Shown piece by piece: positions 2,700-52,319 of a DNA stretch of 64,000 nt; within the stretch, counting starts at the first letter, position 1; every line of letters starts with the position of its first letter. Below the pieces are notes generated by a model. It ran no database searches. It was not told where the DNA came from and saw only the letters and a list, made by a program, of their open reading frames with translations. A program made the translations under genes and the position numbers. The stretch is taken from assembly GCA_008632985.1 (NCBI GenBank), contig QPGO01000014.1, positions 372,001 to 436,000 on the forward strand, read 5' to 3'. Source of the stretch: Psammoneis japonica (lineage: Eukaryota).

Positions 2700-3676
2700 T
2701 CATGTATGAAGCATTCTCCTAAGCTTCGAACCAAGGGATCCACTGCAGTTGTATCTTGAGCCGTGCTTATCCCCTGTAACAATGGCATCTTTGTCATTGT
2801 TACCGTCTACTCGGCGGTGTTCACTTTGAGCGGGAGGAGGCGACTGCTGACTAAGCAGAAGCATTTCCTCCCAGCTCGTTCTTGAGCCATCCTTATCCCC
2901 AGTAATGATGGCACCCTTGTTCTTGCTACCGACTGCTCGGCGGTGTGTCTCATGGCGTCTCCGACCTTGAACTGATTCACTTTGAGTGGGAGGAGGCGAC
3001 TGACTCAGAAGCATTGCCTCCCAGTTCATGGCCTCGACAGGAACCAACTGATTCGCAAGCAATTCCTCCCAGCTCATAGACTCTTTGCATCCATTCTTTT
3101 CAACCTTCTTGTTGTTGGATGCATTGTCAAGCTCATTCAGTTTACAACGAAGGCATTCGTTCTCTTTTCCGAGGCGAGAGTCATCTGCGGTCACTTCTTT
3201 AGTGGAATGTGAAAGCTCGGCTTCCACAAGCACAAGAACCGTTGCGTCATCGCAAGCGGGCGCAGATGATGGACCCAAAGAAGACAAGTCCATCTCGACC
3301 GGCATTGGCGAAATGTCGTTGATCTGTCTCCGAGGACGCCGTCGTTCTCCGTTCCTGGGGTGACAGCACTGGCGCCATCTTTGACAGGCCTTTCGCTCGG
3401 ACTTTTTCCAACTGCGTCCTCACTCTGTCTTGAAATTAAATCACATTTTTGCTTCTGATTGCAGGCATCCCTTTGAGTTGTAGGATGCTGGATCGTCACT
3501 TGTTCTAGCTGGTTTTCCGGAGACTTTGCTTCTCCTGGTTTTGTTTTTTTCTCACCCTGGATGACACCACGTCTGTTGCGCATGCCATCATCATTGGATG
3601 AGTTGGTCGGTGGTCTTCTGAAATGGTTCATTCGTTGTTGACGTGATGAACTGCTTGCAGGCACAACAGCTGTCAT
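2700..3676 (-). pseudogene. Hypothetical low-complexity protein, frameshifted, with repeated 'WE(E/A)(M/L)LL..SPPP.QSE' units
   Basis: Overlapping ORFs 3191-3676 and 2700-3305. Internal repeats near 2820-2880 and 2975-3080. Partly TpA-depleted. Confidence 0.4.
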
Positions 3677-3699
3677 ATGTTTGTGTTCATTTCATGTGC

Positions 3700-6600: not shown

Positions 6601-7100
6601 GGTGACAGCCACAAACAGGATTGGCTGGCCTTGTGCTTTGGCACAACATGGGGCTTTTTGCACTTTCTTGCTGACAGCCACACTTCTCCCTCTGCTGCAT
6701 CCACAGCTGTCGCAGCTCACCTGTGTGTGCCACTCTTTTTGTCTGTTGCACATCATTGTGGCATCAGATGTCAGAGGCAAGGTGTCACCATGCCAAAAAT
6801 GTGGGTCAAAATGAGAGCTTTTTGCTCTTGTCACAAAAATGCACTGTTTTGCACATGATTTGCTCTGTTTGTTGATTGCTTCATTCATCATCACCGTTGC
6901 TGCTCACAAACTGGTTTGTGCATTGTTTTGGACTTTGCCTTGACAGATTTTTTGTGAACCACTGCAGGAAAGAACCACTCCATCATGGAGGCACACTGGC
7001 ATTGATGACAAGCTGCCCCACTGCCGTGGACAGCAACATCTCCTCTCAGTTGATGCTTTGACACCAAAGTTGAACTTGAGGTTTGCAAAAGACACGACCC
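3700..7100. repeat. Heavily decayed repeat or gene block, unidentified, depleted in TpA and CpG
   Basis: TA and CG are nearly absent and TG/CA is in large excess. A roughly 150-bp-period duplication is visible (5614-5670 vs 5767-5824). No recognisable domain. Confidence 0.55.
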
Positions 7101-7516
7101 TGTCTCCCAAGTCTGTTTGTCTTAATGTGCAATCCTGCGGCTGTCGTGAGACCTGCCGACACTGGTGCGTCGGACAAGAAGACGGACGCATTCTCTTTCT
7201 TGTTCCGTCAAATGTGTGCTCAACTCTACGGCGTGGTTGCATTGGTGCTCAGAGTTGCACCTTCGGGTGCGGCAGTGTGCAGCTAGCCCCAAAAATGAAG
7301 GGCAGTTTGTTGACGGGAGATGTTTGTAAAAAATACAATCCTGACCTGTTGACTGCACGACGATAATCCATTTTGTAGGCCTCTAGCGACTCTAGAGATC
7401 GTATCAAAGTACAACGACATACGTTGGATCCACCGTTAAAATAGTAAGGTACATGCATTGCTTTTATAAACGAAACATTCATTCTGCTCTCGCCGCGAGC
7501 GACAGAGACAAAACAA

Positions 7517-10500: not shown

Positions 10501-12730
10501 TGTCGTAACCGTTGGAAACGAGGTGATGAAATCATGAGCATTTGCGAGTTTGCAGCCTCCTCAATGGCCTCTTGCGAAGCACCGGGACAGCCGTATTCGA
10601 TATTCTCACGAATGCTTCTCGCAAACAATTTTGGCTCCTAAAAGCGCGCCGTATGAGGAGAGGGTCACGATCATGAGATTTCAAAGTTCTCGCCATTCAC
10701 ATCGGTAGTCAAACATTATCTCATCCTACCTGACTAACGAGCCCAATCTGAGACCGAAGAGATTTGACATTGAGCTCCCTGAGATCAATCCCATCGAGGG
10801 TGATTGAACCATCGAGAGGATCGTAGAAGCGCTCAATCAGTTGCACGTTGTAGATTTTCCGCTCCCACTAGATTCAACAACGTTGATGAGATACAGTTGC
10901 AGCGCAAAATTTCGACATAGCGTACAATCACTTACCTAGACCCTACCAATGCAACAGTTGTTCCTGCCTTTATGTTGAGATTGAATCCGTTGAATACTTT
11001 TATTTCCGGTCTCGTAGGATACGCAAATACTACGTTTTGAAATTGAATATCTCCCTTGACAGTTGAAAGTTTCTTTCCTTCATCTGATGAGGAATCAATC
11101 ACGTACTTTGGAAGGTCTGATGATCCTTTGTCAGTCGTCCCACTTTCTACCGTTTCGTCTGATTCAACTTTGCGATTAATGGCCTCAAGCGCAGGGTAAC
11201 ATGCAGCTCTTGTGCCGAAAATCGATTCAACTGCAACTGCCACTTGTGGTAGGACAGATGCAGCAAAAGTGATACCCATTAACGAGCCATTGACATCCGT
11301 GGCACTGCATAAAGAGGCAAAGATATCATTCAATGAGCGCAAGAAACTCACGGACCACTTCGGCCTGCCAAAGATTCCAGCATTCCGAAAAGTTACAACT
11401 CACCTAGGGTCGCAGGTTTCTACTCCCTCTACTGCGCCACTGGTATGAATAAAGCCAACAGAAAAGTGTGAAAAGACGGGTGCAAGCGAGGCAGAGACAG
11501 TACGTCACGCAACTCACCTAGGATCACAGCCTGAGTCACGTACAGCATCGTAAAGAAGGAATGAGCCGTACAACGTCACTGCAAGGTAGGATACCATGAA
11601 TGATCCCATCATCCCTCCGTTGGACAGGCCAACCCAATGAAGTTGCTGCACCGCCCCATCAAAAGCCTGTTTAGTTGCGCTGACAAACTTTTCGATCGTG
11701 ATCTCAACCGCATTCAACGACTATCTCAAGCGACAGAAAATGAAGAAATGATGTGGATGTGAGATAGAAGAACAGCACAAAGACTGGAACCCAAGCAACT
11801 CACCAATATGGTGCGTATAGCCGAGACAGTCGTGTACACCACAGACCCAGCTTCTGCGTAGCTTTCCTGTGCCCTCGTCGACTGAGATGTGTTCAGTTGT
11901 AAAACAAAATACACCGACACAATCATAAACGGAACAGAGGCCAATATCACCAAACTCGATTTCCAAGACGCATAAAAGGCGTACACAAGGGCTAAGGTGG
12001 TAACAAGGAAACAAAGTCCACTTCTGAGGTAAACGAATCAATCAACATTCATCCACACGTAGACAACTTGAGAACGCACCTCCGATAACTGTAACTGTGA
12101 ACTGGATTCCTTCTCCCAATTTACGCCCTAAACCTTTTCTGAACTTCTTTCCATTAGACGAAACCATTGTTGCTGTTCCTGTGACATTCCTGATATCATG
12201 GTAGGCCATATCTTGTCTGAGCAGGGCATCGAACCACTGAATTTTCAAATCATCGGTCATTAAACCTGCAGCTGTTTCTAGTAAGGTCGCCTGAGCAGTC
12301 ATAAAGATGCCTGCCACGACCCTGTGAGTGTCGAGTAGCAAACAAAAGAAATCGTTAGCATTGATCTGAAAATTCTGAGCCAACACGAGCACCACGAGCC
12401 CGCGAGCCGGTACGTACCCTAGAATCATAAAGACGTAGGATATCTCCCGAATTCCATCCAAGAAACTATCGGATTCCACAGAAGCACCAAGTTTCTCGAA
12501 CGATCTAGCAAACCAGAAAGCCATGAAGGGCAAGACGCATCCTGAAACAACTGCGCACAAGACCCCAGCAATGATGTAGTACTTTTTCTGCGGGGGTCCG
12601 AATTGGAAGACTTCACGCAAAGATGCAAGATTTTCTTTCAAAGGCTTTTCCGTCGCCTTTTTGACTCGTCATGCCGAGCTTCTTCCTCTGATTCAACAGA
12701 ACCATCAAAAGGTTGTTCAATATCCGTCAT
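7517..12730 (-). CDS. ABCB/MDR (P-glycoprotein-like) full transporter, multi-exon, domain order TMD-NBD-NBD-TMD
   Basis: TMD1 about 12600-11200 ('[10 protein letters not shown]'). NBD about 11050-9930 (Walker [17 protein letters not shown]). Second NBD about 9810-9020 ([25 protein letters not shown]). TMD2 about 8830-7560 ('[10 protein letters not shown]'), including a 23-nt microexon at 8668-8690. Stop at 7517. Several 1-bp frameshifts. Confidence 0.9.
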
Positions 12731-12899
12731 GTTCCGACAGCTCTACACGTTGTTTTCTTAGGTAAAAAGAATCCAAATGCTGTCATGATGTCAATGCCAA
12801 TACCGGTAGTCTACATGTGCGTTCGGATTGCGTTGCGACGACTCCTCGTGCTGTATGTTCGCAAGTGTTCGATGGAAGCGTGATACGATGGACAGACCA

Positions 12900-14542
12900 A
12901 AAAGGATGCGGACAAGGCGAGGCAGGCAGGCAAGGGATGGACAAGGCAAGCGAGCGGACTCTCAGCAGCAAAGCAGTTGATCTTCTGAGCTGTGGCACTC
13001 CCGGCTTGGGAGCTGTGGTGATGATGCAACAGTGTGCAGCAGGAAAAAGGGCAATGACAACTGGGTGCACTGTGGCATTCTGTCAGCACTGCTTCTTGTC
13101 TGCAGCACAGGACAACTTTGGCTCAAACCGGCGGCAACCTTTGGAGTGAGGGTGGGAATGACAGGTGTGTGTCCATGTGAAATCTCTTGTGAGCTAGAAA
13201 AATGTGTCATCATGATCAAGAGAACCTCACTGGTGTGGTGACCAAGCACATTGTTTGAGTGTGTGAATGACAGCTGCTGCTGGCCACAGATTCAAGCACC
13301 AGCCATCGGTTTGTGCCGAGCAACTCAGGCTCACATTTGGCTGAGCTCACTGGGTCAGATGCAACACTTTGGTTGCTGCAACATCCACTCCAATTGTCCC
13401 CACTGACAGCTCTGATTTGAGCCCCTTTGGACAACCTCAGTGCTGCTTGTGTGTGGCTGTCATGTGCCTTTTGCACCCCTCCTTTTGCTCAAGAAGCAGC
13501 AGGCACCCAGAGCAAGGTTCTTCCGCCCCCCCCCCCCCAGCTTTTGTCCAGGAGCACTCCATGGTGCAATCCCATGTGAGGGAGGGAGGAGAATCCTTTT
13601 GTCTGTGTGATGCCACCAAAACTCCAGATTTGCTGTCTTTGCTGCCTGCACCGTGGTGTTTTTCTGGTGTCGATGGCAGCCTTGCATCTGAGGAGGGAAC
13701 AAATTGCCTCAATCCTGGGGCAGCACTTTGGAAAACTGTTGCTGGCAAAGCCAGCTGTGTTCTCCAATTTGTCCAGGCTGTCATCATCCTGCCAATTCAG
13801 CCAGCTGTCAACTTGCTGGTTTCTTTTGGCAAGCCACAAGAATGTGCTCCATTGCTCTGACCCAAGTTTTCCACCATCATGCCACTGCTTCTGTTTCAGG
13901 CAGATTTGTTGACAAGTTGCATGAGAAACATTCTTCTGCAATCAGCTCTTCCATGGCAATCTGTCTGGTTGCCATGGCAATCTGTCTGGCTGAAGGTGAC
14001 CCAGCAAATGACGGCATTCTTGAGTGACAATTGCCTCTGCCAGAGAAACTTTCCTGTGGTGGGGCAACTGCCACATGTTGTCAGAAGCACCTTTGCTCTC
14101 AGAGCTCTGCTTCCTCTTCCTCTGCTGTGTTCTTCTTCTCCTCTCTTCCTTGTTTTGTTTGCTGTGTCTGCTCCTTTTCTCATCACACCAAGGTGCTGCC
14201 AGTTGGCCACTTTTGCAAAGCTCTTTTTTGTCCACTTGTGTCTTGGTTGTTGCTGTCTTTTGTTTGTGCATTGATTGCCCCGTTCTCCTGTGCCCCTCCT
14301 CCTCCTTGTTGGTCTTGCCCTTCACAAATGCCAGCACTTCTCCCAAAAGCTCTCAAGGACAATTTCTTGTTCTTGCTGCTTGTGGCTGCCAAGCTGGTGT
14401 TAAATCTTGTCCTTGCTTGGCAACTTTTTTCCACCAGATGATGTTCTTTCCAACAATGGCTGAGAAGGAAGAAGTGCACAAAGCACCTGCACACAGCAGG
14501 TCATGCTTCCTGGCTCTCCTTGTCTCTTTTAGCATGATTTCA
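12900..14542. repeat. Decayed TpA/CpG-depleted block, left part, interrupted by Copia-1
   Basis: Same composition as 3700-7100. It continues at 21756 after the duplicated target site TTTCA. Confidence 0.6.
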
Positions 14543-14738
14543 TGTCAGCCTGCTCATCCACATGTCGTGTGATGGACAGACTGGATGCGGATGATGGCTG
14601 GACCATCCAGACAGACGAGCAGATCTCTCTGAGATCTGCTTCTCACTTTCTCATCTACTGGCACTCATGTTGTCACAGTCCTGGCACTTTGGGGAGTCTT
14701 TCACACCTCCATCACTGTCGACCTTTGGCATTCTGTCA
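14543..14738 (+). repeat. 5' LTR of Copia-1
   Basis: Direct repeat of 21560-21755, starts TGTCAG and ends TGTCA. Confidence 0.97.
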
Positions 14739-14916
14739 GGTTGTGGCCATGCGCTGTGCCACAGACCTCTGCGCCAAGCTTTCTGTTTCGATTCGATTGT
14801 TTTGTGAGCCGATCGAGCGAGCCTCATCATCTGATCAGACAACTTTTTATCTCGCTTTCCCGGCATTTTTCACGACCGTAGAAACATGCCAGATTTCCAC
14901 GCGTGCATGACCAAAA

Positions 14917-17900
14917 ATGGCTCCACCCACTAAAACCATGGCGTCTTCCGACACCACAAAGCCCGCTCTGTCGTCCATTGCAGAGATCTGCTGCGAATTC
15001 GAGGCACATGCAACGATGCCACATCTACATGATTGCCTGAATGCGATTTATGCAGACTCCACAACTGATCTGGACCCGTTTTTTGATGATCCAGAGCATG
15101 TGCAACCCAAGAAAGATTTCGCGGACATGCTTCGTGATTGCTTCATCCACGAAGCGTTTCCACCCCACACCGCTGATCCCACAGATGTACAATCGATCAA
15201 GACGATTATGGATCAAGCCCCGTTCCGACTTGTTGACTCTCAAAGGATTCGTCCAGTCCGTTTAACGACTCCGGTCTTGTCAAAGCTGATCAAGACGAAT
15301 CTCCTGAACAATGAGCAATCTTTGATTGTTCTCATCTCCACCCAACATGTGTGTGTTGATCCGGACATGATGTGGAACTATCGCAATTGGAACAGTTCTC
15401 TCTTGTGCCCTGCCAGAAGAAACAGCAGCCTCCGTCTTCTTCTCAGAAAACCACAGGACCTGCTACATTGACTGTGACTGACTTGGTCACTGCACTCAAT
15501 GCATGCACGTCGAGCCATGCTCCGCCTTCTACAGCTTCTGCCAAGACATCTGGAAGTGCCACATCCTCCGTAACATCGAAGTACCTCTTCAATCCGAACA
15601 CACTTCCTCCAGATGTTCGTGCACGCTACGACCGCAAAGAAGACGGAAAAGTCACTCTTCAGAGCTCTCTCGTCCCTTACGACCATGGATTCTGTCACTG
15701 TGTTGATGCATCCGATCGCATCATCCTTGGTGATGGCACCCTTTTCATCATGAGCTCAACTCCTGATCAGAAAATGCTGTTCAGGGAACCTCCTGTATGT
15801 CATGACGACTCTCCCCCTGGGATGCGAGCATGGTGCCAAAATTTCCAACGTCATGCCTTTGATTCAGGTTGCTGCGTGCATCCCCTGTGGTGTTTCACTG
15901 AGGACCACGGTGGTGAGAAGGGTTTTGAGATCGGAAACGGCAAGAATGATGACTCACCTCAACGCATGTATGTCCACTGCAAGGAAGCTCAGAGCTCCCT
16001 CCACAAAATCCCATCCAAGTCGGACATGTTCCCCAAGAATGGCAAGCATCATCGGATTGTTGCATCATGCTGCGGCAACAGATGCAAGGCTCTCAAGCAG
16101 ATCATCTACGAGAATCATCCTGCCTTTGATCATGATGCTGCTGGACTCATTGATTCTCATCCCATCCAAGGCAATCGATCATTGATGGACTGCCACATGA
16201 TCTTCAATGATTTCCTGCAGCTACGTGCCTGCATTTTTGATGCGGACTCTACGTTGAACGATCCACGGGAGATGACTGTCTTTGTCAAGAATGCCAAGCA
16301 CTCCAAGTTCTTGTCACGTGCTGCCAGAGATGAACGGAAGTCTCCAGCTGTGCAGAAGAAGCACACGGATGCACAGATTGTCAAGACTCTCTCTGATTTC
16401 CTCCACCAACCGGATGGTCCATCCCTTGCCACTCGTACGACGCAATCCAACCCACGCCGCACATGGAATCGAGCAGATGCTGCCACGCGACGCACACCTG
16501 TCAATGTCAATTCTCTCCAGATCCCTGAGATGCCCCTTCAAGAACCAGTTGATGCCTCTGCCACTGAAGATCCTGGTGCAGAATCTCCACCTCCGGATGC
16601 CTTTGATGCTCTTTGCGACGAATTGCATGAACTCGAGATCCCATCTACGGACGAAGATCGCATTCTTCACCATGCACACTCGGCTTCAGTCTGTAAACTG
16701 AAAGTTGCTCCGAATGAAGCCTCCAACAAACCATGTCTTGTCTGCTCCGGAGAGCATTTGTTTGATGACTGTCCGGTCCTGAAGAACAACCCGCACATCA
16801 AGGGATTCCACATCCGTTTTTGTCAATTCTTAAAGTGGGAAGCAGCCATGCGTGCTTCTGAGTTCCAAGGACCCCAAGGGTCATTGCCACCCCATCATGA
16901 CAATCCTGAAAATCTGCCTCCGTCTAGCACTCCACCCTCGGATTTTCAATCGGGCCGTCGCAGCTGGTTTCAGATCTCCGACGCTGCCCGTTGTCTCCTC
17001 ACCGAGACAAGACTAATGTCAGCAGGATGACCTTGAAAGAGGGACTAACCGTCTCGTCATCTGCCGCTGAAATGCCTCTTTCCTCACAGATTGACATGGA
17101 TGCCACCCCTTTCACCTCCACGAAGATGTCATTTGATGCCAACACGTCACCCGATGATGACCCTGCTCCTCAAGAAGCCACTGTCGATGCTGCTCATGCT
17201 CCGGATCCTTTGGAACAGGGGAGGGAAGACCCAGAAACACCGGTTTTTGAGGAACACATTGATCTCACCTACGATGACATGGCTGTTGAAGATGGTTTTG
17301 CTGCCGTCAATTCTGTTCGTGTTGCTCCGATCGATCCACACCAGGTGAGTCACTCACCTGAGCCGGAACTGCTGCGATCCACTTGTTCTGTCAATGGGGT
17401 AAATTTTGCTCCGAATGAACGTTGTGCTCAGTTGGATGCTGGTGCTGATGTTGCGCGCACAGGCAACCGTGACCTCCTCCATTGATGCCAAGACTTCACT
17501 CCGTCCCATCCCTGTCCCCTTGCTGTCAACCCGGCCCTTGGCCATCAAGCTGTCCCAGTTGGATTCGGCCATCTTCGCATCCCTGCAGAGAACTCTGACG
17601 GCTGTGTTGAGGTCCGTGCACACTGCCACCCACAGATCCAATCTACGTTGGTCGATGAGCGACTCCTCCTTTGTCAAAATGGTTCTCGTCGTGCAGATTG
17701 CAATGTTGACTGCATCCTCAAGTTCCATGATCTCGGCACCTGCAAGTTTGTTGCACGACATCGATTGCGCAAGCATCAGGACATCATTGTCCATGGGAAA
17801 TTGATCAATGGCAATGTTTTACTCACCCTCTCATCCTCCTGGAACCTGCCGATGAATTGGACGCATCCATTGAGCGCCTCAAGACTGGTGACCCCACCTT

Positions 17901-20900
17901 TGCCAATGAGTGTGAAGCGGTTTCTGCGCACATGATTGAAACGCATCGCACTCACCAACATGATGCTCTTCATGCTGAACGCAAGTTGATCCCCCGTGTC
18001 CATCAGGATGTCCCTTTTGAAAAGCATGCAGAGAAGAACATTCCTGTGCATTCTCTCAAGGCCGACACGGAACGCCTTTTGTGGCATCAGCGACTTGGTC
18101 ATCCGACTGATCACCACCTTTGTCATGCCCATGAACATGTTGATGGCATCCCCAAGTTTGCCCACGGAACTTCTCCTCTCGACACTTGTCCTGCATGTGT
18201 GTGAGCAAAGCAGACGAAGGAACCTGCCAGTCTGAACACTGCTCTTGCTGCCACCCAACCATGCCAAGGCCTCACGGTTGATTTTTCTTTCTCTGGCCTG
18301 TGGTCCAAGAACTCGAAGCGTGCCAAAGACCATGTTGGTTTGAATGGCGAGACTTGTTGGATCACTGTCTATGATCATAAAACAAAGCATCTCCATGGTG
18401 CGACCCGGGTCTCCAAGGCAACCCCTCTGAATTGGCTTCGCCACTTTCTGGAAGAGCATTCACCAAAATGTCCAGACAAGCATGCACCCATGGATCAAGG
18501 AGGTGAATTGCATCAAAACCCAGAAGTTCGGCGACTCTTCGAGGATGACTTTCATCATGCAATTCGTCCTGTGGGAAAAGATGCTTCAAATCAGAGTGGC
18601 CCAGTGGAATGCAGTCATTTGACTGTTGCCAACGCCATCCGGGCGATGCCAATTGGCGCCGATTTGCCCACAAAATTCTGGCCCTGTGCTTTTCATCATT
18701 TCACTCGCATCAACAATGCCACACCATCCCGCGGACAACCTGCTGCTCCAATTGCCCTCGCCACTGGTCAGAAGGATGATTTCAAGAACTTCCGTGCATT
18801 TGGTTGTCGAGTGTGGGTGCGTGCGTCGAATCACCGCCCAGCAAAATTTCAGTCTGTCTCTCGCAAGGGAATGTTCTTGGGCTGTCTTCCGGACACTGCC
18901 AAGAACATCCTTTGGTGCGATGCTGAGACATCGCGTGTCAAGCTTGCCAAGCACATCCGTCATGATGAGGGCATGAATGATCTACCCCATGACTCTCTTC
19001 CACCGAATGTGGTGCACTTGGAACGCACTCAAGATGGCAAGGCGTTGCCTGCTGAGACTGAAGAATCCACAATGGATGAGTTTCACTTTCATGGGAATCC
19101 TTTTGCCAAGACCATCAAGCGTGCGATGAAGGGACCATTTGCTGATCCGACATTTGGACTTTCCTTGGCTACGGACGATCTCCATCGGCGAGCATTTGTC
19201 TCTGACATTAAGTGTGGTTCTCCTGCTGCGCGTCTTTTCTCTTCTTTGAAGGCTGCCCGCAACAAGATCAAGGGTGCGTGTGTCGCATCGATCGATGATC
19301 ATCCCATCTTCATGGCAGAGGAGGCCATCACACGTTTTCAACAAGTCTGTGATTCAGGAAAGACTCACTTTGAAATCGAATTCACGCCGGAACGTTGACT
19401 GGACTCCCAGGCTCTCCAACGTGCCCTGATGGAACACAATGTCTGTGCACCGACTCCTGACCCTGATGATGAGCATGTCCCGGAAATTGCTGCTGCTGAC
19501 ATGCGTGCCATTGCTGCCATCCGTCACCCTGACATTGATTTTTCTGATGTGGACAATGATGACGTCCATCCGCCGATTTATGTCGACTACGACAATGGTG
19601 TCGTCAACATTTGTGCCATTTCTTCTCATGCGATTGCTCCAGAGGAACAAGCGTCAGGTGCTTTCACTCGCCATCATCTCCAGAAATTGGACACCTGGCC
19701 CGAATGGCATGCGGGTGAATTCAAACAACTCGACCAATTTCATGAGTTGGGAATGTTTGGTGCACCAATTAAACGTCCGAAGGATGCCACAGTCCTTCGT
19801 CCGCATTGGCAACATGACCTCAAGCATGATGGCACGCGACGCTCTCGACAATGTTGCGATGGATCCCCACGTGCTGCCTCGATTCTCCACCGTCTTCACT
19901 TGACCCACTCCTCTTGTGTGGAACAACCTGTCCAACGCATGTTTTTTGCTCTTGCTGCGACCATGAGCTACCATGCCTTTGGGTGGTGATGCTCGTGATG
20001 CATGTGCACACTCCCCGCGACCATCACACCCCGTCTATGTTGCCATCGACGAAGCACATGCCACTTGGCACAAGGATCGGTTTGGTGTTGATTTGGACAG
20101 GACCACGGCACTTCCAATGCAACGTGCACTTCAAGGACACCCAGAAGCCGGCGTGCTCTGGGAGACCCACATCAATGGCATTTTGTCTGATGTGAATCTA
20201 CTTTTTCGCAATGCTGCTCATGACAAATGCATCTGTTCTGCTGCTTTTGAGGGACACAAGATCTTGCTCCTCCGCCAGGTTGATGACTTCTCCCTTGCGT
20301 GTCCTGAAGAGTCTCTTGCGATCAAGACATGTGACAAGATTGGCAAAGCTCTTCAATTGGAATCGGAAGCTTCTCCGCCTTTCAAGTGTCTTGGTGTGAT
20401 TGAAGAATTCAATGGTGTGGATGTCCATCAATGTGATGATTCTATTGGTGTTGCTGTTCACAGCTACATTGATCGGGTTTGTACTTTGCATGGATGGTCG
20501 ACACCGACAGATGAAGAACTCGTCGATGACTGCAAGGCTGCGCCCATTCCAGTTGACTCTGTTCGTGAACTGTGCACTGCCATTGGTCCAGCTGAAGGAA
20601 CCCCGGAACATGCGGAGTTGCAACAAGCTGCTGGCTTTGGGTGCCACACTCTCCTTGGTGAATTGTTGCGGCGCATGTTGTCTGCCGATTGGACATTGGC
20701 TGTGCCATCACCACTCTTTCCAAGTTCTCCACCTGTCCTGCTTTGGTTCACCATGATGCACTCAAGGGTGCATGCAAGTGCCTTCGACGCACCAAGCATT
20801 GGGAATTGAATTACAAGAAGCCCGCCCGAGACTCAAGACCACCCGCCTGCCCCTTCGAACGTCTTGCTCCGGACCTGACACTACCTTCGTTCCCTTTCCC

Positions 20901-21384
20901 AGAACATGACCATCAACTTGTTGCTTTTTTGGATGCTGCATGTGGCAATGACCTCCGTAACTGTCGCTCTACGACCGGCCATGCTTGCATGTTAGCCGGT
21001 GCTGCTGTGTCCTTTCAATGCAAGACCCAATCGGTGACTGCTGCGAGTTCTACGGAAGCTGAGTTCTGTGCTGCTGGCACTGCTGCCAAGCATGTCCTTC
21101 ACCTTCGTCACATCCTGCATGATTTGGGCTTCCCTCAGACGAAGGCAACCCCGTTGTACATTGACAACGAATCGGCGATCAAGATCATCAATCACTCAAT
21201 CCCGACCGAGTGATCCCGTCACATTGAGATCCAGTTTTTTGCGATCCAAGAATGGAAGGAAGCGGGCAAGATTGTCGCAAGACATGTTCCTGGCATTGTC
21301 AACCCCAGCGATGACCTTGCCAAGGCCCTTGGCTGGGCACTGCACGCTCGCCACACTCGACGCATGATGGGACACTGCTGTTGA
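14917..21384 (+). pseudogene. Copia-1 gag-pol, disrupted by stops and frameshifts
   Basis: Zn knuckle 'CLVCSGEHLFDDC', protease 'QLDAGAD', 'LWHQRLGH', integrase 'DQGGEL', RT 'RQVDDF', RNase H 'FLDAA...SSTEAEF...IDNESA'. Confidence 0.93.
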
Positions 21385-21559
21385 CATTTTTTTTCCGCGG
21401 TGGCCTCCCTGCTGCGCATTGCCCCCTTGTTTGATGGCGCATTGGGCATGGACACTTGTCGTGTCCTGTGTCTGGTCTCTCTGTTTCCCCACATCATCCC
21501 TGTTCTTTGGTTTGATCTGTCCCATTTTCTATGTTGAGACATCACAGATCAGGGGAGGG

Positions 21560-21755
21560 TGTCAGCCTGCTCATCCACATGTCGTGTGATGGACAGACTG
21601 GATGCGGATGATGGCCAGACCATCTAGATAGACGAGCAGATCTCTCTGAGATCTGCTTCTCACTTTCTCATCTGCTGGCACTCGTGTCATCACAGTCCTG
21701 GTGCTTTGGGGAGTCTTTCACACCTCTGTCACTGTCGACCTTCGGCATTCTGTCA
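21560..21755 (+). repeat. 3' LTR of Copia-1
   Basis: Direct repeat of 14543-14738, preceded by the PPT and followed by the TSD. Confidence 0.97.
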
Positions 21756-22350
21756 TTTCATGGAGAGGCTCAGCATTGAGAACTTGGAGCTCTCCCCACT
21801 CTTGTCACTGACCTTTTTTCAAGTGCCTTGTCCTTGCTGCTTGTGGCTGCCAACCTGTCAAATCTTGTCCTTGCTTGGCAACTTTTTTCCACCAGACGAT
21901 TTTCTTTCCAAAAACAGCTGGAAAGGAACAAGCACACAAAACACCTGCACACAGCAGGTCATGCTTCCTGGCTCTCCTTTTCTCATTGAGAGCTTGGAAC
22001 TCTTGTCACTGTCCTTTTTTCTCTGCCTCCCCCCGTTGTTCATGTGAAAATGAAAGCAGTGTGGTCACCCAGCTGGAGCGCACGCACAAAAAGTGGAAAC
22101 TTGTTGTGCCGAGGAGGAAGAAGAGTGGTTTTTTTGTTTCTCCCACAACTTTGCTTCTCTTTGCAGCAATGACAAGCTTGATCTTTTCTCCTCTGATTGA
22201 CTCCCATGTTGATGGCCAGCAAATTTCCTTGCATCGCAGCCCACTTTTCACACAGCCACTCTTGCACCCAGCCTGGCGGCTGCCCCTGCGATGGGCTGGA
22301 GTCTGGCTGCACCTCCTCGGTGGGAGGTTGGACAGTGGCAACAAAGCTGA
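21756..22350. repeat. Decayed block, right part, continuation of 12900-14542
   Basis: 21826-21985 is a diverged direct copy of 14366-14526. TA and CG are depleted. Confidence 0.6.
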
Positions 22351-22702
22351 CAGTTTATACGAACATTGTCAATGACTGAGGTCTGAAAATTATGTTCGTT
22401 GTCGAGATCGAGGGGTTCAAATTAAGGCTAACCCTAACCCTAATCGGTCATGACGCAGTGAGTCTTGCGATGATGGCGTGAAGGACGACGCATTCAGTCT
22501 TGAAACACGAACAGATGAATCGTGACTTTGCCGCCATCATTCAAAATCAAAAACGCAATCGTGTGTCGTGTTGGAACGCGAAGCGATCCGCTCATGGTTG
22601 ACTTCGAATCGAAACGGCATACGATTGGTTCATAATATAATGTGAAAAATAGAGAAGAGAAGAATATTACCACTTCCTTTGACACCAACCACAAACTACG
22701 AC

Positions 22703-23224
22703 ATGCATTTCTCGTTGCTTTGTTGCGCAACAACTGCATTCTTCTGTATTGCCCGTTATGCAGAAGCGGCAACGATCCTGGAGTTCTGCACCAATCAAGG
22801 AGCCTTGGTCGAAGATCACTTTGCAGACTTTAGGACAAAATGTTCTTGTGAGAATCAACACGATAATGGCACTGTGGCCCTGCTCTCGTGCATGGATGGT
22901 TGCCAGAATTGCGTCAACGAACGTTGCTACTATGCAGACATTCAGGCCACAATCGAACCCTCTGCTGACGACGACGGTTCTTTTGTCATTTCAGAGACTT
23001 GTCATGTCATCCGAGATACTCCACAGAAAATGTGTAGTCAACCAAAGCCTGAAAATGCTGGTAACATTATTGATGTGTTGGAGAATGAAACAGGTCACAT
23101 GCCTGAAGATTTGAGTGTCAAATGCCCTGACGACGACGACAGCACGTCTGGAGGCAGATTTTCGTTGCCTAGCGTCGTCGTCCTCGGTACCATTATTTCA
23201 GGCATTGGAGTAAACATTGTTTGA
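22703..23224 (+). CDS. Small secreted or membrane-anchored Cys-rich protein
   Basis: Signal-peptide-like N-terminus 'MHFSLLCCATTAFFCIARYAEA', multiple Cys, and a hydrophobic C-terminus (GPI or TM signal). Confidence 0.7.
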   Translation: MHFSLLCCATTAFFCIARYAEAATILEFCTNQGALVEDHFADFRTKCSCENQHDNGTVALLSCMDGCQNCVNERCYYADIQATIEPSADDDGSFVISETCHVIRDTPQKMCSQPKPENAGNIIDVLENETGHMPEDLSVKCPDDDDSTSGGRFSLPSVVVLGTIISGIGVNIV

Positions 23225-32721: not shown

Positions 32722-33792
32722 ATGTCTCTCGCCGGCACTACTACAACCAATCGCAACGCCAATGCTGCTACAAACAATCGCAAGGCGTCCCATCATGAAC
32801 GAGTCAGCAGTGCTCTTTAAGCGTTGCCACCGTCCGTCTTTGGTCTACAGATTCTTTCCGTTTTGAACAAGACCGACATTTTGACCGTCCTTAAAATCAG
32901 GCAACTACGCCAGAAAATGCATGGTGCTCAGTTTTATTGTGCAACTCATGGAACCAAGCTTACAAAGTTGAATCCGGATTTGTATGGTGGTGACAGCGAG
33001 GAAGAAAAAGAATCAACCGCCAAAGAAGCAACAGAAGAGGCGGAGCTGGGGTTAGCAAAAGATGAAAATGAAGGGACCGAGGAGAGTGAAGAGGCCATGA
33101 AGAAAGACACCTTGCTCAATCTGGATTGCGAAGACTGTGTTGAGGCCGAGCATGGTCGGGAACGCTGTCCTGCTTGTGATGAGTTTTCGCCCACACAAAC
33201 TTTTGAATCCTGCATCAAGTGTGGAGGAAGGAAAGAGTGCGTGGTGTGTTGCTTTGATACAGGTGGTGGCGTTTGCGAGGACTGCAACAAGTATATTTGT
33301 GGAAAAGATGGTTGCCCTCATACCGATTACTGTGAGAGCTGTTATGGTGTCTTTTGTGCTGATTGCAGAACCTTTGCAGTTTGTGGTAACTGTCACATTA
33401 CATTCGGTTGCTTTGACTGTTTCGTGGATCAAGACGAAAATTACTTCTGCAATGCTTGCCATGACTGCTTCTGCTTTGACTGCAAGGACTCTTACAGATG
33501 CAACGAATGTGAACACTTCTTTTGCTGCGACTGCAAGCAGAGTTTTGTATGCGAGTCTTGTAATGAGGTCTATTGTCGCTCCTGTCGAGAAAGAGCCGGA
33601 ATTTGTGAAGACTGCAACGATTGCCTTTGTGTCGAGTGTAGCTCCAAGTGCAGTGAGTGCGAAACGTTGACTTGCAAGTCTTGTTCACAAGTGTCCGCAT
33701 GCACGGCATGTAATATGAAGCTTTGTGCCGACTGCAGAGATGTCTTTCACACTTGTTGCTGTGATCAAAAGGGAAACTCCAAGTTGATCTAA
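32722..33792 (+). CDS. Cys-rich protein (tandem CxxC) with an F-box-like N-terminal motif and an in-frame TAA at 32818-32820
   Basis: ATG 32722 is in frame with ORF 32824-33792. 'LPPSVFGLQILSVL..TDIL' resembles an F-box and is followed by many CxxC units. The paralogue has TAT at the TAA position. An alternative ATG lies at 32917. Confidence 0.65.
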
Positions 33793-44895: not shown

Positions 44896-45120
44896 TGTTA
44901 CAATGTCCAGAGAATGGACAACAGACAGAGTGTGTTGATGTCACAATGGATGTGGGGCGATTCTAGGTGCTAGTGTTACAGCTGCCAAAGAGAAAATTGT
45001 GAGGAGAGGAGACGCTCTTCGTCTGCTCTCCTAGTTTCCCGAGTGACGTTTGCACTGATGACGCAAGTCTTTGCAACGGCGGGTCACAATGACTGTCTTG
45101 ATGATTTGACAATCTTCACA
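44896..45120 (-). repeat. 3' LTR of Copia-2
   Basis: Direct repeat of 52088-52313 with TG...CA ends. Confidence 0.97.
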
Positions 45121-45157
45121 CTCCCTCTCATTGTGTCTTGCAAGTTAAAGTCTAAAC

Positions 45158-48100
45158 TCACCAACCCATCACCAGAGGACGTAAGGTCTCTAGGATCTCA
45201 GCCGCAACCGGCTTAGTGAGACAATCCGCCAGTTGGTCCTTGGTGTCGATGTCGTGTGTCGAAATTTCTTTTCGAGTGACACAGTCGCAAAAGTGGTGCA
45301 ACTTGACATTCAAGTGCTTGGTTCGTGGTCTGCACTTGTGCACGCGCGCCATCTCTGGTGCCCCGCCATTGTCTTCAAACACTTTGCAATGGATCTTGGG
45401 CGTGGACGTGTTGAAAGGGAAGCCGTGTCGCTTGAGTTCATTCAGCATTTCCATCAAGGGCACAGCTTCTCGCAGAGCACACGACAAGCCTGTGCATTCA
45501 GATTCTGTGCTGCTTGAGGCTGTCTTGGTTTGCAGTTGAGATTTCCAAAGAATGGGACAGCCCGCGTAAGAAATGACACAACCGTGTCGAGAACGTGCTG
45601 CACCTCGGTCTTGGCTTGCCTCTCGTGGGTCCCAATTCCCGCTAAAATCTGCATCCACGTAAACCTCCAAGTCCTTTCCCTTTGCAGGTTTCAGGACTGC
45701 ACCCTTGTCTCTGGTCTTGTGTGAACATCTGCCAAGCCACCGCATGGCTTTGGCGTGCTCAACCTTGGGAGCTGCAGTGAACCGTGCGCATTGGTGGGTG
45801 ATGCACGCCATGTCGCTTCAAGTGCATTTTTCCAAGCAGCTCAGCTTGCCAACAACCGATCGGCAGTTGAAGGAATCATCAAACGGCTCCGAATCGGAGT
45901 GCCTTAATGGCATCTTGGAGGATGCTGCCGGAGTGTCCTTGGGTGCGGCACTTGGTGCATCCAGTCGCAAGTCCTTGAGCATCTGATCGATTGGGTGTGG
46001 TTGCGTCAAGTGGACCGTGCCATCGTTCTTCCTCACGATGTTGATGCCGAGAAAATCCTGTGTGTCCCCTTCCACAGTAATGTCGAGTTTTGCCTCCTTG
46101 AGTTCCTTGATGATCTGATTAATTTCTCTCTCATCAGGACCGGCAATCAGCGAGTCGTCTGTGTGTAGAAGGCAAATGGTTTTCCCGCGATAGAACACGC
46201 ACTCATCAACCTTGGACTGCTCGAAACCAAGCTTGTTGACGAGCTTGTTGACCAGACATTTGTTCCAAACTGTTTTTGACCGTGTGCGTTTCGACGGAGC
46301 TTCAGGACGTAATCCTTGGTGTTGCCGTCGACTAACTCGAAGCCCGCTGGCATTTCCATGTAGAGCTCCTTGTCTGCCGGCGCTTGAGGGAAGGCTAAAA
46401 CGCAGTCCAATTGCTTGGAGTGCCACCCGTTCATTGCTGTCAGGGTGAGTGACATTTGAATTGAGTTTCGTGATGCCACCGGTGCGCACGTCTCTTCATG
46501 ATCCTTTCCTTTCCTCATTTTTGAACCGTCGACATTCAAGCGAGCCTTCCACTTCTTGACCTTGCGAGTCTTGATGTCGCGCTTGCGCTTCATCTGCCAC
46601 ACCGCTGGCAGCACCTTGCTGTCTCTTTTCACCTGTGATCGTGGAATGATGGAGAAATTGCCATTTTCCATTTGATCCGTTACCTCCTTTTGCATGGCTT
46701 TCAGGAACTGCACGCGATCCGGTTCCTTCACAGCCTGGTGCATGTACATGGTGTCTGGATCTGCTGATGCTTTGTGGGCAAGGAGGGGATTCTTGTCTTC
46801 TCTAAGTTCTTGTGAGTCTTGGGGATGCATTGCTGCCAAACACAATGTCTCACCCTCGACATCGTTTCTTGTTTCGGAACTGATTTCGGCCGTCATGGCT
46901 TCTGTCAGTCTGCTGACCGGTCGGCTCTTTCGCCCTGAGCGAGTCACTTTTGGTGCATCGGCACCGTTTCGTGTCTCGTCAGACTCGCGCTCTCCTGGAG
47001 CCACTTCTAGAGATTCAGTCGCTGGCGTAGGTCCACCCTCATCTTCCTGAGGTTGCATGTGTGGACTGTCTTGCCTCGACGCCACTTGGCCAGTGGCCAC
47101 TGCAGTGTTTCCGCTCTGTTGCGGTCCCGGATTTAGGTCAGCCCATTGAACTCGTTTTTGTCGTTTCTTGCCTCGCCTGGCTCCCTCTGAATTTGCTTTC
47201 CGCTTCTTCGTGGTTGGAGCTGGTGTGGACGCCGTTTTGGCTGCTCCACTGGTGTCAGCTTTCGTCGCCTCCCTCTGAGCTACGAAGCCGGCTTTGATTT
47301 GCCATTGCGAGTCCAGCTTGTCTTGCCGCACCGTGTGGAAGGAGGGATCAAACTTGACATGGAATTGTGGGCCAACTAGAGCAGTCGCTCGATCCAGCAC
47401 GAGCGCCACATTCTTTCCATGCACTGGGCTTTGGCCTAGATGGACTCCGACCCTTGATCGTTGCTTCCATTTGTGGTGTGGCAGGTTGGATTGCAAGGCG
47501 CTGTCAAGAACGTACACTGGGCATCCGAAGGGTTTCCAGTGTTTTGGGTTGGCAGAGACTCGGGTCTTGGAGAATGTTTGCATGGGGGACAACCTGTCCT
47601 TGTTTTGGAAACTCGGTGCGTTGTTAATCGCGTCGTTGGCCATCCTTGTTGCACAAGGCCACAGATTCGCTGTGATTGCTTTCTTCCACCGGCTTTGAGC
47701 GTGCATTGACATGCTCCTGGCGAGTTCTTGGAGCTCGCGCATGCGACGCTTGGCCAAGCCGTTCTGGTGGTGAGCGCCCACCGCTGCGAAGGTGAGCCGT
47801 TGTCCTTGTGATCGACATGCAAACACCCAGTCGTCAGCCTTGAAGATGCCATTGTCTGCATGGCAGGCTTCGACTGTAACGCCACACGTCTTGGCGCATT
47901 GCTTGAAAGCTTGTTTCCCTTCTAACGTCTCCGCTGCCGATGCCGTCTTTTGCAGGTGCACGTGTCCCATTTTGGAGTGTTGATCAACGTGCACCGTAGC
48001 ATGCTTGTGCCGTTTGGTGGTTGGCCATCCGGTCATTTGAGCAATCAACCCCGGTGCAGGAGATGCAAGTTGGTCTACAGAGACGACTTGGCCTGGGCGT

Positions 48101-51100
48101 GTGGGTTTTTCCGTCGGTTGCTGGTTGCGTCGTGTCTTGTCTCGCCACTTGCGCTCAGCAGCCTTGGCATGCAAGCATGCAGAGCAGACGGGTACATTGC
48201 ATTTTGCCAGCTTCTTTGGCAGCATGCCCAATCTTGCCATCCATTGCAGTTTTGTAAAACTCATGTGGCCGAATTGTTGATGGCATCATAGGAGCAGTGA
48301 TGCCTCGGCAGAGCCTTGGCGATCCTCTTCATCTTCCACCACTGCTGGTGGCTTGACGGCTGCTCCCTCTGAGGTGGAACTTGGCATGGTGCCCGTGTCT
48401 CCCTCTTGCTTGCCATCCAACGGTGGTCCGTCTAAGTTGAAATCTGCTGCCGTTGACCCGTCAATTTCCCCAGGTGCCAACCCTGAGTCTTGCGACTGGT
48501 CTTGGTTCATTGGTTGCCATTCATCACGCGGCGCGTCAGCATCGCATTCAACCTCAGCATCATCATCTTGATCCTCATCGTCGCTCACGACTGCTGCCTC
48601 ATTGGCTGGCACAGGATCCTCGACTTCTTCTGCTGGGTCGACATCCGCCTCCGCACAGAATGCTTCATGCTTTTGGCATCCGGGTGCTAGATGAAATGTA
48701 GCCACGTTGGTCATTTCACTCAGCGGTGTTGTCAGCCGGTGTTTCTTCTGGTTCCAATGGAGGGTCACCTGCCTTGAGTCAGTCTTGCTGCCCGTGCCTT
48801 CCTTGGGTTTGCTGTCCCTTTGGGTCTTAGCCCAGTGTTGAGGGCTCAGCAACCTGACCTTCCCACTTGGTGCGTAGAACAAATTGGGCATCTTGAACTC
48901 ATGCGTCCTGCCCTCGTCGTCGTTCCATCTCCATGGCAGGGCGCCGATCTTCACCCCGGTGGTTTTCGAACCGCCAAAACCTTTTGTGGTTCTGTTGCAG
49001 TCTCGTAATTCACCAATGAAGTCTTCCGCGCAATCGGACATGCAACCTGCAGCCCGATTGTCAACCCCGACTGGTCCTGAGTCAGTGTCGAAGGTCACCG
49101 CATGCTCCATGATGCTCTTGTTTTGAGCCTGCATTGCGACCACCACCATGGCCAGTGCTGCGGCATGGTGTCGTGTTCGCCTGGGTCTCTTGAGTTTGTC
49201 CATAGATTGGTGGAGTCTTCGAATTCTCCCTCTTCTGGACAAGTCGGTGTTGGTGTCGATCGCTTCAATGAATTGTGCCACTTGTTCTCCGACCTGGCGC
49301 ATCTTGCTGGTCAAGCAGCGGCAACCCTTCCGCAGCTTGCACCATCTTTTCTTCTTGGGTGCGCAGTGCGGGGAGTGTCCTGGGTTGTCGTTGCAGTGGA
49401 ACATGAGGCAGATGATTAGGACCGCGGCGGATGGAGAGCAGTGAGCGCAGGCCATGGTGCGATCTGTGATGATGAGTGCTAAAACAATGTTCATGTAATT
49501 GCAGGCTATCGCCTGCCATGCGAATGTAGCCGTTGCTTTAATGAAAGCGCAGCACAACATTGTGAGGTCGCCAATTGCATGTCCATCATCACAGCAGTTG
49601 CAACTGTGGCTGTGCTCTAGGAGTCATTCGGATTCGTCGTCTGATGGCTCCTTGTCGACTGCTGCCTTGTGTGCCTTCGTAAGCTTGAGACGTCGTTTGC
49701 CATCTTGTTTGCGGCAGAACTTCTTCTCCCGTTCGTTTCCGCTCTTGCCATTGGCCGCTCTCTTCTTGTTCTCATCCGGGTCACACAAACAATTCTCTGG
49801 AGTGTGCTTGCGCCACTTTCCAGGGCATTTCCCTCCGACGTCCTTGTGGCAGTAGCAGCATTTTACACCGTTCCAGTGCCTGGGCTTGGAGATCATGTCC
49901 TTGGTTGGGCGCAAGTTGTCCTTCATCCATTTGGGCATGTTTCGCTTGTCACCATCCTTTCCTTTCCCACGCTTGTCGTCCTTTCTGGTGTTCTCAGCAG
50001 ATTCGTGCTTCTCAGCTCTTTTCTCAATGCCTTCGACTTTGGCTTCCAGAGCAAGTGTCTTCTCTTCTTCCTCGCCAGGCGCGCACTCCACTTCTTCTTC
50101 TGAACCAAATTCTTGCACTCATTGTCCGCAAGCGTCATGAGGTGATTTGGCGCAATGTCCTTGCCGTCCTCGCGTTCCTCTTGCTTGTTGCCAATGCACT
50201 TGGTAAAGTTCTTGTCCAAAGCAGCGAGGCATCCTTTGAGTGAATTCGTCAGGAGATCCTCTGTGGTTTCGCCACGAGACCTCAGCGCAGCGAGAAGGAG
50301 AGCCACGTGCTGATTGAACTTCGTGACATCGTGACCCATCGTCGGCAAGTGTTGGTCAAGCTCAGCGAGTTTCGCACGGATCGTGCTCATGGTTGCATTC
50401 GTGCCCAGGTGCGACTCTTGAATGATGACCTTGAGGAGCAAACATCCAGAGATCTTGTCTCCGATCTTGCAGGACGCATCGTGGACATGTGCCTTGTCCT
50501 TCCCAGCCTTGGAGATTGAGTTGATCAGACAGTGTCCGAGCATGGTAGCATCTTGAGCTGCACGGCATGGATTCCTGATGTACGACTCCTCGTGTCTCTT
50601 GATGCGTTCCATGCTGATCTCACCATAGTTAGTGAGCAAGTTTGAGTACGTCGTGTCCGGATCTTCAGGGCGATCCAGGAAACTTCGAAGTTTCGAAAAA
50701 TATTTAAGAGATTCCTAATTCCTATCAATATATCTTTACGTGGACCTCGTGTAGGATGGACAAAAGCTTCGAACATTGTGAAATTTCTTTCTCTATTGCC
50801 CTTTATACTGCCCCAAAGAAAGTTCGAAGTGTTCGAAGTTGTTCGAAGTGTTCGAATACTTCGAACACTTCGAAGTACTTCGAACACTTTCGAAGTTTAT
50901 AATTCATAAATAAAAGTAAGGCAGGGAGACGAATGATGATGTCACGATGACATCCGTAGCCGAATGATGTACGTACTGCTGGTAGGGCCCTAGTACAACA
51001 CGCGCGATGCGGTACCGGTATGACATCTCACGTTGTTGTTTTGTGCTCTCTTCTACTCGAGTCTCGAGCATCTACCGGTATCAATGAGATGATGAGATAC

Positions 51101-52059
51101 GGTACGTACAATCGAAGCGACAAGTACAGGCAGCTACGAGATGATGTACTACAAGCTTATTACGCGCGCTTGTGGCTAAGAGTAGGCCTACGTAGGTTTT
51201 CTACGCCAAAGCACGACAAAACAACACGTGAATCCTTTGCCGTCGTTCATTTGTCAACCACGAAGAATTACCAATCCAATGAGACATATATGATCCGCAA
51301 GTACCTCATTGATATAGCTGTACCCAAATGGCTTGGTAACTATTCCGGGTGGGCCCGAACTCGTTCGACGGAACGTGTCATCGTGGTGGTGTCGCGTGCC
51401 AAAAATCGGTGGTTGTCAATTCGTAATGATATATAAATGACTAAATAAATAATTAAAATTCAACTTGTTCGAACACTTCGAACTTGTTCGAATAAGTTCG
51501 AACTTTGTTCGAATAAGTTCGAAGTGACCAAAGGGCAATATGAAAAGTTCGAAGAATAAGTGACTCAAATCAAAATCTTTGGAGGGCAATATGTTTGCGA
51601 CAAAACTTCGAACACTTCGAACAATATTCGAAAGCTTCGAACACACAACATATTTGTTCGAACTTTTATCTATTGCCCCTTGTTTATAAAGTACCAACAA
51701 CCTACGAGCTCTGCACGTAGAATAATTTGCAGAAATGTCATGGAATATGGAATCTTTCGAAGTCTTCGAAGTTTCCTGGATCGCCCAGGGTCTTCAGGTG
51801 TCATAAGGATGCCTGTCGTCGGGTCATTCCATCCGAGCAGGCTGGCCCTGGTTTCAACATTCTTGAGGAACTGAAAGAGTTCGCCTGGAGTGCAGTCGAA
51901 TGTATCTCCACTTAATGCTTCCGAGCCATTTTCGAACAGCTTTCGTCCAGCACTCTTGCGAAAGTCAACTGCTCCCGTAATGGCTTGAGCTGGAGCAAGG
52001 GCGAACGGAATGTCCTCATCGGACGTTGAGGACAATGATGCACTTGAAACGTCTGACAT
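45158..52059 (-). pseudogene. Copia-2 gag and pol, disrupted; gag is split by the MITE
   Basis: gag from ATG 52059, protease 'GVDNRA', integrase 'HADNGIF...HQNGLA', RT 'KARLNVDG...HTDDS', RNase H 'YVDADFSG...EDN...DQLAD.LTK'. Confidence 0.93.
50669..51785. mobile_element. Non-autonomous TIR element (PIF/Harbinger-like MITE, 1117 bp) nested in Copia-2 gag
   Basis: Perfect 22-bp TIR GGCGATCCAGGAAACTTCGAAG, 3-bp TSD CAG (50666-68 and 51786-88), subterminal TTCGAA arrays. Removing it restores the gag frame 'ILMTPEDPEDPDTTYSNLL'. Confidence 0.92.
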
Positions 52060-52087
52060 GATTTTCTTCTTCAGCGCAGAGGAAGCG

Positions 52088-52313
52088 TGTTGTGATGTCC
52101 AGAGAATGGACAACAGACAGAGCATGTTGACATCACAATGGATGTGGGGCGATTCTAGGTGCTGGTGTCACAGCCACCAAAAGAGAAAATTGTGAGGAGA
52201 GGAGACACTCTTCGTCTGCTCTCCTAGTTTCCCGAGTGACGTTTGCACTGATGACATAAGTCTTTGTGACGGCGGGTCACAATGACTGTCTTGATGATTT
52301 GACAATCTTCACA
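52088..52313 (-). repeat. 5' LTR of Copia-2
   Basis: Direct repeat of 44896-45120. Confidence 0.97.
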
Positions 52314-52319
52314 GATTTC

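Follow-up and report, generated by a model that had tools for sequence, protein, structure and literature searches.

The locus and its copia element

The window analysed here is the whole 64,000-nucleotide stretch at positions 372,001 to 436,000 (forward strand) of contig QPGO01000014.1 in assembly GCA_008632985.1 of the diatom Psammoneis japonica, and it contains a Ty1/copia retrotransposon with 196-bp long terminal repeats (LTRs) (Table 1). The LTRs are direct repeats without gaps, with TGTCA at each end, and a target site duplication (TSD), TTTCA, is present on both flanks. In the Pfam matches the integrase lies upstream of an RVT_2-type reverse transcriptase, which is the Ty1/copia order; two of the three domain matches fell slightly short of the curated cut-offs, as mutation of the copies would lead one to expect. 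For the integrase frame, the best-matching named proteins come from diatoms (Cylindrotheca fusiformis and Nitzschia inconspicua, 44-60% identity). The LTRs, the 5-bp duplication and the domain order are shared with the diatom Ty1/copia elements of the CoDi type, and this is an ordinary diatom-type Ty1/copia retrotransposon. The element is ordinary but the mutational process is not. TA dinucleotides have been changed to TG and CA almost to completion after insertion.

The loss of TA was evident from composition. The whole element has 56 TA vs 425 expected, and 325 CG vs 469 expected. The observed/expected ratio of TA was 0.01-0.2 in the erased blocks of the window vs about 0.4-0.7 in gene regions, 47 of the 128 bins of 500 bp had seven TA or fewer, and the genes adjoining the erased blocks had a normal TA level.

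Table 1. Positions of features in the 64-kb window
Feature	Position	Strand	Basis or remark
Left TSD copy, TTTCA, 5 bp	14538..14542	+	
5' LTR, 196 bp	14543..14738	+	repeat alignment
Element interior, Ty1/copia	14739..21559	+	dead, split into stop-to-stop frames
GAG-pre-integrase	18058..18201	+	PF13976, E 5e-6, slightly below curated cut-off
SH3-like retroviral polymerase domain	18763..18969	+	PF25597, E 2e-10, after integrase core
RVT_2 reverse transcriptase piece	20099..20482	+	PF07727, E 7e-7, 3' of integrase
Purine-rich tract abutting 3' LTR	21550..21559	+	polypurine tract inferred by position
3' LTR, 196 bp	21560..21755	+	
Right TSD copy, TTTCA, 5 bp	21756..21760	+	
Variant dinucleotides of the LTR pair (5'/3')	14599 TG/CA; 14608 CA/TA; 14612 CA/TA; 14656 TA/TG; 14666 CA/CG; 14671 TG/CA; 14685 CA/TG; 14710 CA/TG; 14726 TG/CG		
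TA-erased block holding the element	~12900..22300	.	edges approximate, 200-bp bins
Second copia element	44896..52313	-	LTRs 44896-45120 and 52088-52313
MITE-like element, 1.1 kb	50668..51787	.	terminal inverted repeats; inside second copia

Differences within LTR pairs

The two LTRs differ at 13 of 196 bases, and all of these are transitions at only nine pyrimidine-purine (YpR) dinucleotides. An earlier reading made from the sequence alone (hereafter the sequence-only reading) had listed these nine sites in the same order with no further substitution, and the alignment gave exactly those 13 transitions. As the YpR columns make up 96 of the 196 LTR bases, the chance of all 13 changes falling there was 9e-5, and the chance of at least four double-change sites among 13 changes placed randomly in YpR columns was 0.002. 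Short-read contigs over 12500-23000 differ from the assembly by one letter, although they possibly come from the assembly's own sample and therefore test for sequencing error rather than independence. At 17468-17469 the assembly reads CG and the short-read contig CA, which could be an allele, a paralogue or a recent CpG change.

The same pattern was found across the family. The LTR search of the same genome gave 40 scored matches among 158 candidates. Twenty stretches were taken, of which 14 had one clean LTR pair (L045-L050, without a single pair, were excluded before counting), and with the window element these made a set of 15 pairs. TSDs were found on all of them, 13 directly and two after a 2-base edge shift. 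The 15 pairs showed 153 differences at YpR sites (CA/TG 80, TA/TG 28, CA/TA 19, CG/TG 17, CA/CG 9, TA/CG 0) vs 19 others, about eight of which were edge or gap artefacts, and transitions made up 244 of the 252 substitutions. With edges and gaps trimmed, there were 230 differences in 1333 YpR bases vs 11 in 1470 other bases. All 16 substitutions between the LTRs of the second, unrelated copia element of the window were also at YpR sites. Non-transposon duplicates (I1-I3), taken as the control, showed the usual spectrum: transversions and non-YpR transitions made up 44 of their 62 substitutions. A gene-like region duplicated in inverted orientation about 33 kb apart (172-2400 and 32791-35734), with an ordinary mutation spectrum, served as control.

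Direction of change

When the 15 elements were aligned, TA occurred together with TG and CA at 111 sites, CG together with TG and CA at 265, TG with CA at 239, and all four states at three, whereas 749 sites were purely TG (379) or purely CA (370). This mixing of site states indicates two source states (TA and CG) and two stable end states (TG and CA).

Three independent lines of evidence gave the same direction, the second being the codons. At conserved positions, with the 15 elements compared to 80 homologous proteins, Tyr codons (n=203) carried TA in three cases, TG in 99, CA in 69, CG in two and other letters in 30. Conserved His, Cys and Gln codons never read TA (0/264, 0/132 and 0/210), Trp was TGG in 137 of 137, and conserved Arg codons (n=348) carried CG in 241 cases, TG in 41 and CA in 40. 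The stop codons in the 15 elements were 28 TGA, one TAG and one TAA. Unlike this family, four named diatom copia proteins keep Tyr (23 Tyr and one Cys/His in 34 positions), a sample biased to intact copies.

One LTR copy, L017 (G000:C59:205188-205381), has kept 17 TA. Of the nine variant sites of the window LTRs, seven read TA in this copy, the four doubles among them, and two read CG; the seven TA-derived sites are thus the four doubles and three singles, and two sites are CG-derived. Across 30 LTR copies TA, TG and CA all occur at these seven sites and CG never does. Between L017 and its own partner LTR there were 14 TA-loss changes and no reverse change. Because L017 and the 30 copies show TA there, each double arose from a TA that was hit on one strand in one LTR and independently on the other strand in its partner; the sequence-only reading had allowed either TA or CG as the ancestor, and all four trace to TA. 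That reading had also placed the changes after integration, and this is borne out by the TSD, by the other 14 pairs, and by the about equal numbers of TG and CA in each copy. It had further named a repeat-induced point mutation (RIP)-like direction, in ambiguous wording, as evidence against itself; the source state found is TA and the end states are TG and CA. The change of TpA to TpG/CpA is the reverse of RIP, and we are almost certain of this direction and of its origin at the DNA level.

Rates and strand pattern

In the six closest copies TA was kept in at most 16% of TA-class cells (289/1800), CG was kept in 79% of CG-class cells (1989/2532), and the background was 0.004 per base. Relative to this background, per-base loss was about 240 times for TpA and about 31 times for CpG, TpA being lost 7-8 times faster than CpG. 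TG and CA outcomes were about equally common in every copy, i.e., both strands were hit. The test for same-strand runs, as a processive enzyme would leave them, was negative at distances above 10 bp (z -1.0 to 1.6), and therefore the events have built up one at a time or in many rounds; within 10 bp, one subfamily gave z 2.6 for such runs. Surviving TA were grouped within particular copies and regions (z 3 to 17), which was not the case for CG. In one subfamily A>G was also raised about three times outside TpA (55/14760 vs 9/7662 for non-CpG G>A, p 0.0005), with 0.34% in ApA, 0.41% in CpA and 0.36% in GpA, and transversions near 0.1%.

Chromosomal neighbourhood of erased copies

The outer flanks of the 30 LTRs were TA-erased in 27 cases and TA-rich in three; of these three LTRs, two were erased and L017 was spared. 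In L017/L037 the 5' LTR with its 17 TA lies by TA-rich DNA and the partner LTR and the body are erased, so that a domain edge falls within the element.

An element resembling miniature inverted-repeat transposable elements (MITEs), with TTCGAA-rich subterminal repeats, provided the second comparison. The window copy has 76 TA and there are at least eight other full-length copies (partial loci L087-L091 were excluded, and L079 and L081, one insertion site, were counted once). Three other insertions in TA-rich flanks retain 71-80 TA and four in erased flanks retain 20-38; the non-YpR distances between these copies are equal. In the four copies in erased flanks the changed cells were 144/261 for TA (55%), 20/262 for CG (8%) and 2/450 for TG/CA. 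TA is preserved at TA-rich sites in copies with 97-98% identity, and therefore the status of near-identical repeat is not sufficient for TA loss. As the MITE-like copies lose TA, an element without an evident RNA stage is also hit. Exposure is thus set mainly by the chromosomal neighbourhood, and the process also hits a non-coding DNA element.

Bacterial-looking pieces of C5-methyltransferase genes (L065, L066, L067 and L071; G000:C301, C297) were found in TA-erased DNA, with observed/expected ratios of 0.07-0.11 for TA and about 0.7 for CG. These are possibly integrated viral or other foreign DNA struck by the same process.

A related copia family in metagenomes

Among the homologous proteins, one of the 67 that could be scored had Cys or His in place of nine of ten conserved Tyr, and several more had this partly. 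The DNA family of that protein was collected from metagenome contigs (80 of 164 loci used, 63 distinct); it has about 65% identity to the window element, in patches only. Observed/expected TA was below 0.3 in 12 of the 80 loci, whose Tyr codons (n=137) carried TA in 54 cases, TG in 55 and CA in 26, vs 622, 49 and 51 in the remaining loci (n=744). In five more distant loci CG was kept, with 1/62 such change. Between L107 and L133 there were 113 TA-loss changes and one reverse. This related family carries the same scar of TpA loss in graded form, and the metagenome loci extend the process to at least one more organism.

Other features of the window

The left flank of the element (about 13000-14540) has also lost most CG and is probably older repeat DNA. 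The insertion target (14398-14532 and 21856-21990) is a repeat with a period of about 240 bp in which TA and CG are both lost, with some transversions; this repeat around the element is probably older repeat DNA. Further blocks at 3400-7200 and 35600-39000, with TA nearly nil and CG very low, are probably older repeat relics. The second copia element has the end duplication GATTTC on both sides, 6 bp instead of 5, and its flanks (43800-44900 and 52300-53400) are TA-poor with CG retained. The 150 bp to the left of the window MITE-like copy have slightly more TA than the remaining copia. A Sec3 gene near the first element had a single named homologue, from a diatom (53%). The 421-aa frame at 52298-53563 had no Pfam match, and no tRNA genes were found in the window.

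Possible mechanism

Two superimposed processes have acted on chromosomal DNA after insertion, i.e., TpA to TpG/CpA near saturation and a slower CpG to TpG/CpA. The CpG component could be explained by 5-methylcytosine being deaminated in the usual way on silenced transposons. For the TpA component, the cause could be a host activity restricted to silenced chromatin domains; most likely the adenine of TpA would be deaminated to hypoxanthine, read as G during replication, by a deaminase of the TadA/ADAT family as proposed for Bigelowiella natans. The outcome would be that Tyr codons are stripped from the transposon genes and the copies killed. We consider this the best overall explanation and rather probable; that an enzyme of TadA/ADAT type deaminates adenine in silenced chromatin is, taken by itself, held with somewhat better than even confidence.

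The genome carries ADAT2-like (G000:C26) and TadA-like (G000:C38) genes, which are expected as housekeeping genes. Profile searches of the genome gave nine matches for PF00383, five for PF14437, four at two loci for PF02137 (ADAT1/ADAR-type), 27 for PF00145 (C5-methyltransferases) and one endonuclease V gene. The AAG/MPG glycosylase gave no match, in a search whose controls recovered 4 of 14, so that this blank is weak evidence. No TET/JBP or MT-A70 match was found in the genome, in searches that had no positive control and are therefore weak as evidence of absence. In L055 (G000:C79:87318-88790, minus strand) a single frame of 491 aa combines a zinc deaminase motif with a 2-oxoglutarate (2OG)-Fe(II) dioxygenase, probably of nucleobase metabolism. 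In L096 (G000:C34:43382-45776, minus strand) a chromodomain frame immediately precedes one for a C5-methyltransferase; the portion of the literature available describes such an order in some diatom relatives of DNMT4/RID (PMC9998398).

Several observations weigh against a domain-restricted adenine deaminase. No candidate deaminase stands out, as all of them resemble tRNA or nucleotide deaminases without a chromatin-reading domain in Pfam, and a DNMT5-type helicase fusion was not recovered among the frames scanned. By sequence, A>G on one strand and T>C on the other are indistinguishable. The rise of A>G over background outside TpA was indistinct in the second subfamily. As to the role of the neighbourhood, TA survival also depends on the flanking bases, from 0% (ATAT) to 25% (CTAA/TTAG); the LTRs L010 and L030 are erased although they lie beside TA-rich DNA; and the window MITE-like copy keeps all 76 TA inside an erased copia, its later insertion being only assumed. 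The right half of the MITE-like element partly resists TA loss where both flanks are erased (L085 and L086), so that sequence matters too. The codon cells, moreover, are not independent, coming from about 14 Tyr positions in 15 copies of the integrase region only.

Alternative explanations

The alternative that survives best, although we think it unlikely, is that transposons carry a modified thymine at TpA (5-hydroxymethyluracil, 5hmU, or 5-formyluracil) as a mark, and that its mispairing with G yields T>C. By symmetry the spectrum would be identical. In the portions of the literature available, 5hmU marks dinoflagellate repeats (PMC11572971), ionised 5-formyluracil pairs with G, and an older report has 5hmU favouring TA and TC contexts, whereas the data of the paper citing it gave 5hmU no sequence preference (PMC11071213). 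The genome, moreover, gave no TET/JBP match in the uncontrolled search described above, and the TC context showed no excess here, GpA>GpG being equal to the other non-TA contexts.

An error-prone polymerase (Pol eta- or iota-like) could put G opposite T in repair patches or during heterochromatin replication. In this way A:T>G:C changes would arise within delimited domains on either strand, and the slight A>G excess outside TpA could be explained. However, such patches predict same-strand runs, which were absent beyond 10 bp, and neither a preference for ApA over CpA and GpA nor a raised level of transversions was seen. We consider it quite improbable.

Decay of methyl-CpG alone, with every variant site formerly CG, is hardly credible. 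It would agree with the two CG-derived sites, with the CG depletion of the element and with the CG methylation of diatom transposons reported in the part of the source available (PMC9998398). However, it makes one-step TA/TG or CA/TA pairs impossible and would not empty Tyr codons; TA and CG states coincide at only three sites vs 111 and 265 where they are separate; and the MITE-like copies lose far more TA than CG. As the sole cause it is refuted by the site states, the Tyr codons and L017.

A-to-I editing of element RNA ahead of reverse transcription is just as hard to sustain. According to the part of the B. natans preprint available (bioRxiv 10.64898/2026.01.13.699255), ADAR is marked by A>G changes with U favoured on the 5' side, and the two ADAT1/ADAR-type loci are present. 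However, editing predicts identical LTRs and TG only, whereas the LTRs differ, every copy has many TG as well as many CA, and the non-coding MITE-like element is hit as well; as the main cause it is refuted.

Fungal-type RIP (CpA>TpA and TpG>TpA) would also be confined to repeats, limited to transitions and active on both strands, and the frame pair in L096 would suit it, but it can be dismissed with near certainty: TA is depleted rather than gained, gains of TA are absent from His, Cys, Gln and Trp codons, the stops are TGA, and near-identical dispersed MITE-like copies at TA-rich sites are untouched, so that the direction of change refutes it. An assembly or sequencing artefact is equally remote, because the short-read contigs agree over 10.5 kb apart from the one letter, the adjoining genes are TA-normal and metagenome assemblies show the same pattern.

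Comparison with known systems

RIP in ascomycetes, which is premeiotic, triggered by repeat homology and dependent on RID/DNMT4, is a massive, transition-only and dinucleotide-specific mutation of transposons that acts after insertion on both strands. The present process shares these characters of transition type, dinucleotide specificity, action after insertion and strand, but TA is lost rather than gained, strand runs are absent and near-identical dispersed copies may escape wholly. Short unlinked repeats can escape RIP too, and because of this the escape of the MITE-like copies is a weaker test against RIP than the polarity.

In Phaeodactylum, transposon methylation is DNMT5a-dependent according to the part of the source available (PMC9998398). 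Decay of methyl-CpG on such DNMT5-methylated diatom transposons would account for the two CG-derived sites among the nine; the TA-derived majority, lost 7-8 times faster, is not explained by it.

One prior report of TpA hypermutation was found, at preprint level and in the unrelated alga B. natans, a chlorarachniophyte. As described in the portion of that preprint available (Mettrop et al. 2026, bioRxiv 10.64898/2026.01.13.699255), integrated DNA of nucleocytoplasmic large DNA viruses (NCLDV) as well as of virophages undergoes TpA-specific hypermutation at hundreds to 1000 times the background (a rate of about 1e-7 to 1e-6 per site and generation, active in only some lines); ADAT2 is proposed, the enzyme being unproven, and reverse transcriptase (RT) and DDE domains occur among the TpA-poor genes. 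Its main text, to the extent available, does not mention diatom, LTR, CpG, stramenopile or retrotransposon. The two cases are alike, as far as the preprint text goes, in the change of TpA to TpG/CpA on both strands of chromosomal DNA, in that foreign or mobile regions are hit and genes spared, and in that paired repeats are not required of the targets. They differ in that the present host is a diatom, i.e., a stramenopile, that the targets are LTR retrotransposons and a MITE-like element, and that the loss is near saturation and overlaid with CpG decay. In B. natans the process was observed in mutation-accumulation lines according to the available text, whereas here it was deduced from copies and only a relative rate is given. 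No description of TpA hypermutation in diatoms was found in the literature searched, which left out most subscription journals. New here are the ancestral state assigned to each site, the rates relative to background, the lack of strand runs, the natural experiment on position and the second organism.

Implications

The overestimation of age by LTR dating that the sequence-only reading had expected can now be given a size. LTR divergence over the 15 pairs was 8.6% in total vs 0.75% at non-YpR bases, and therefore ages from LTR identity are inflated about 11-fold in such DNA, and saturating. For two araphid diatoms, older LTR peaks were obtained from identity and a constant rate, according to the part of that source available (10.1101/2025.10.24.684338). 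It would be worthwhile to recompute these peaks with YpR sites masked.

The genome of P. japonica offers many internally controlled records, such as LTR pairs and dispersed identical elements, so that targeting and chemistry are directly testable, and the observation in B. natans is extended to a second supergroup lineage. It is conceivable, though on balance we doubt it, that diatoms own a dedicated, heterochromatin-guided DNA adenine deaminase that erases TpA as a genome defence, that it is shared with chlorarachniophytes and switched on in scattered lineages of the SAR supergroup (stramenopiles, alveolates and Rhizaria), and that some published 'ancient' bursts of diatom transposons are its by-product. 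To our knowledge, the literature covered identifies no natural enzyme that mutates double-stranded genomic DNA from A:T to G:C in a targeted way. Such a deaminase, if it exists, would be a natural counterpart of the engineered adenine base editors.

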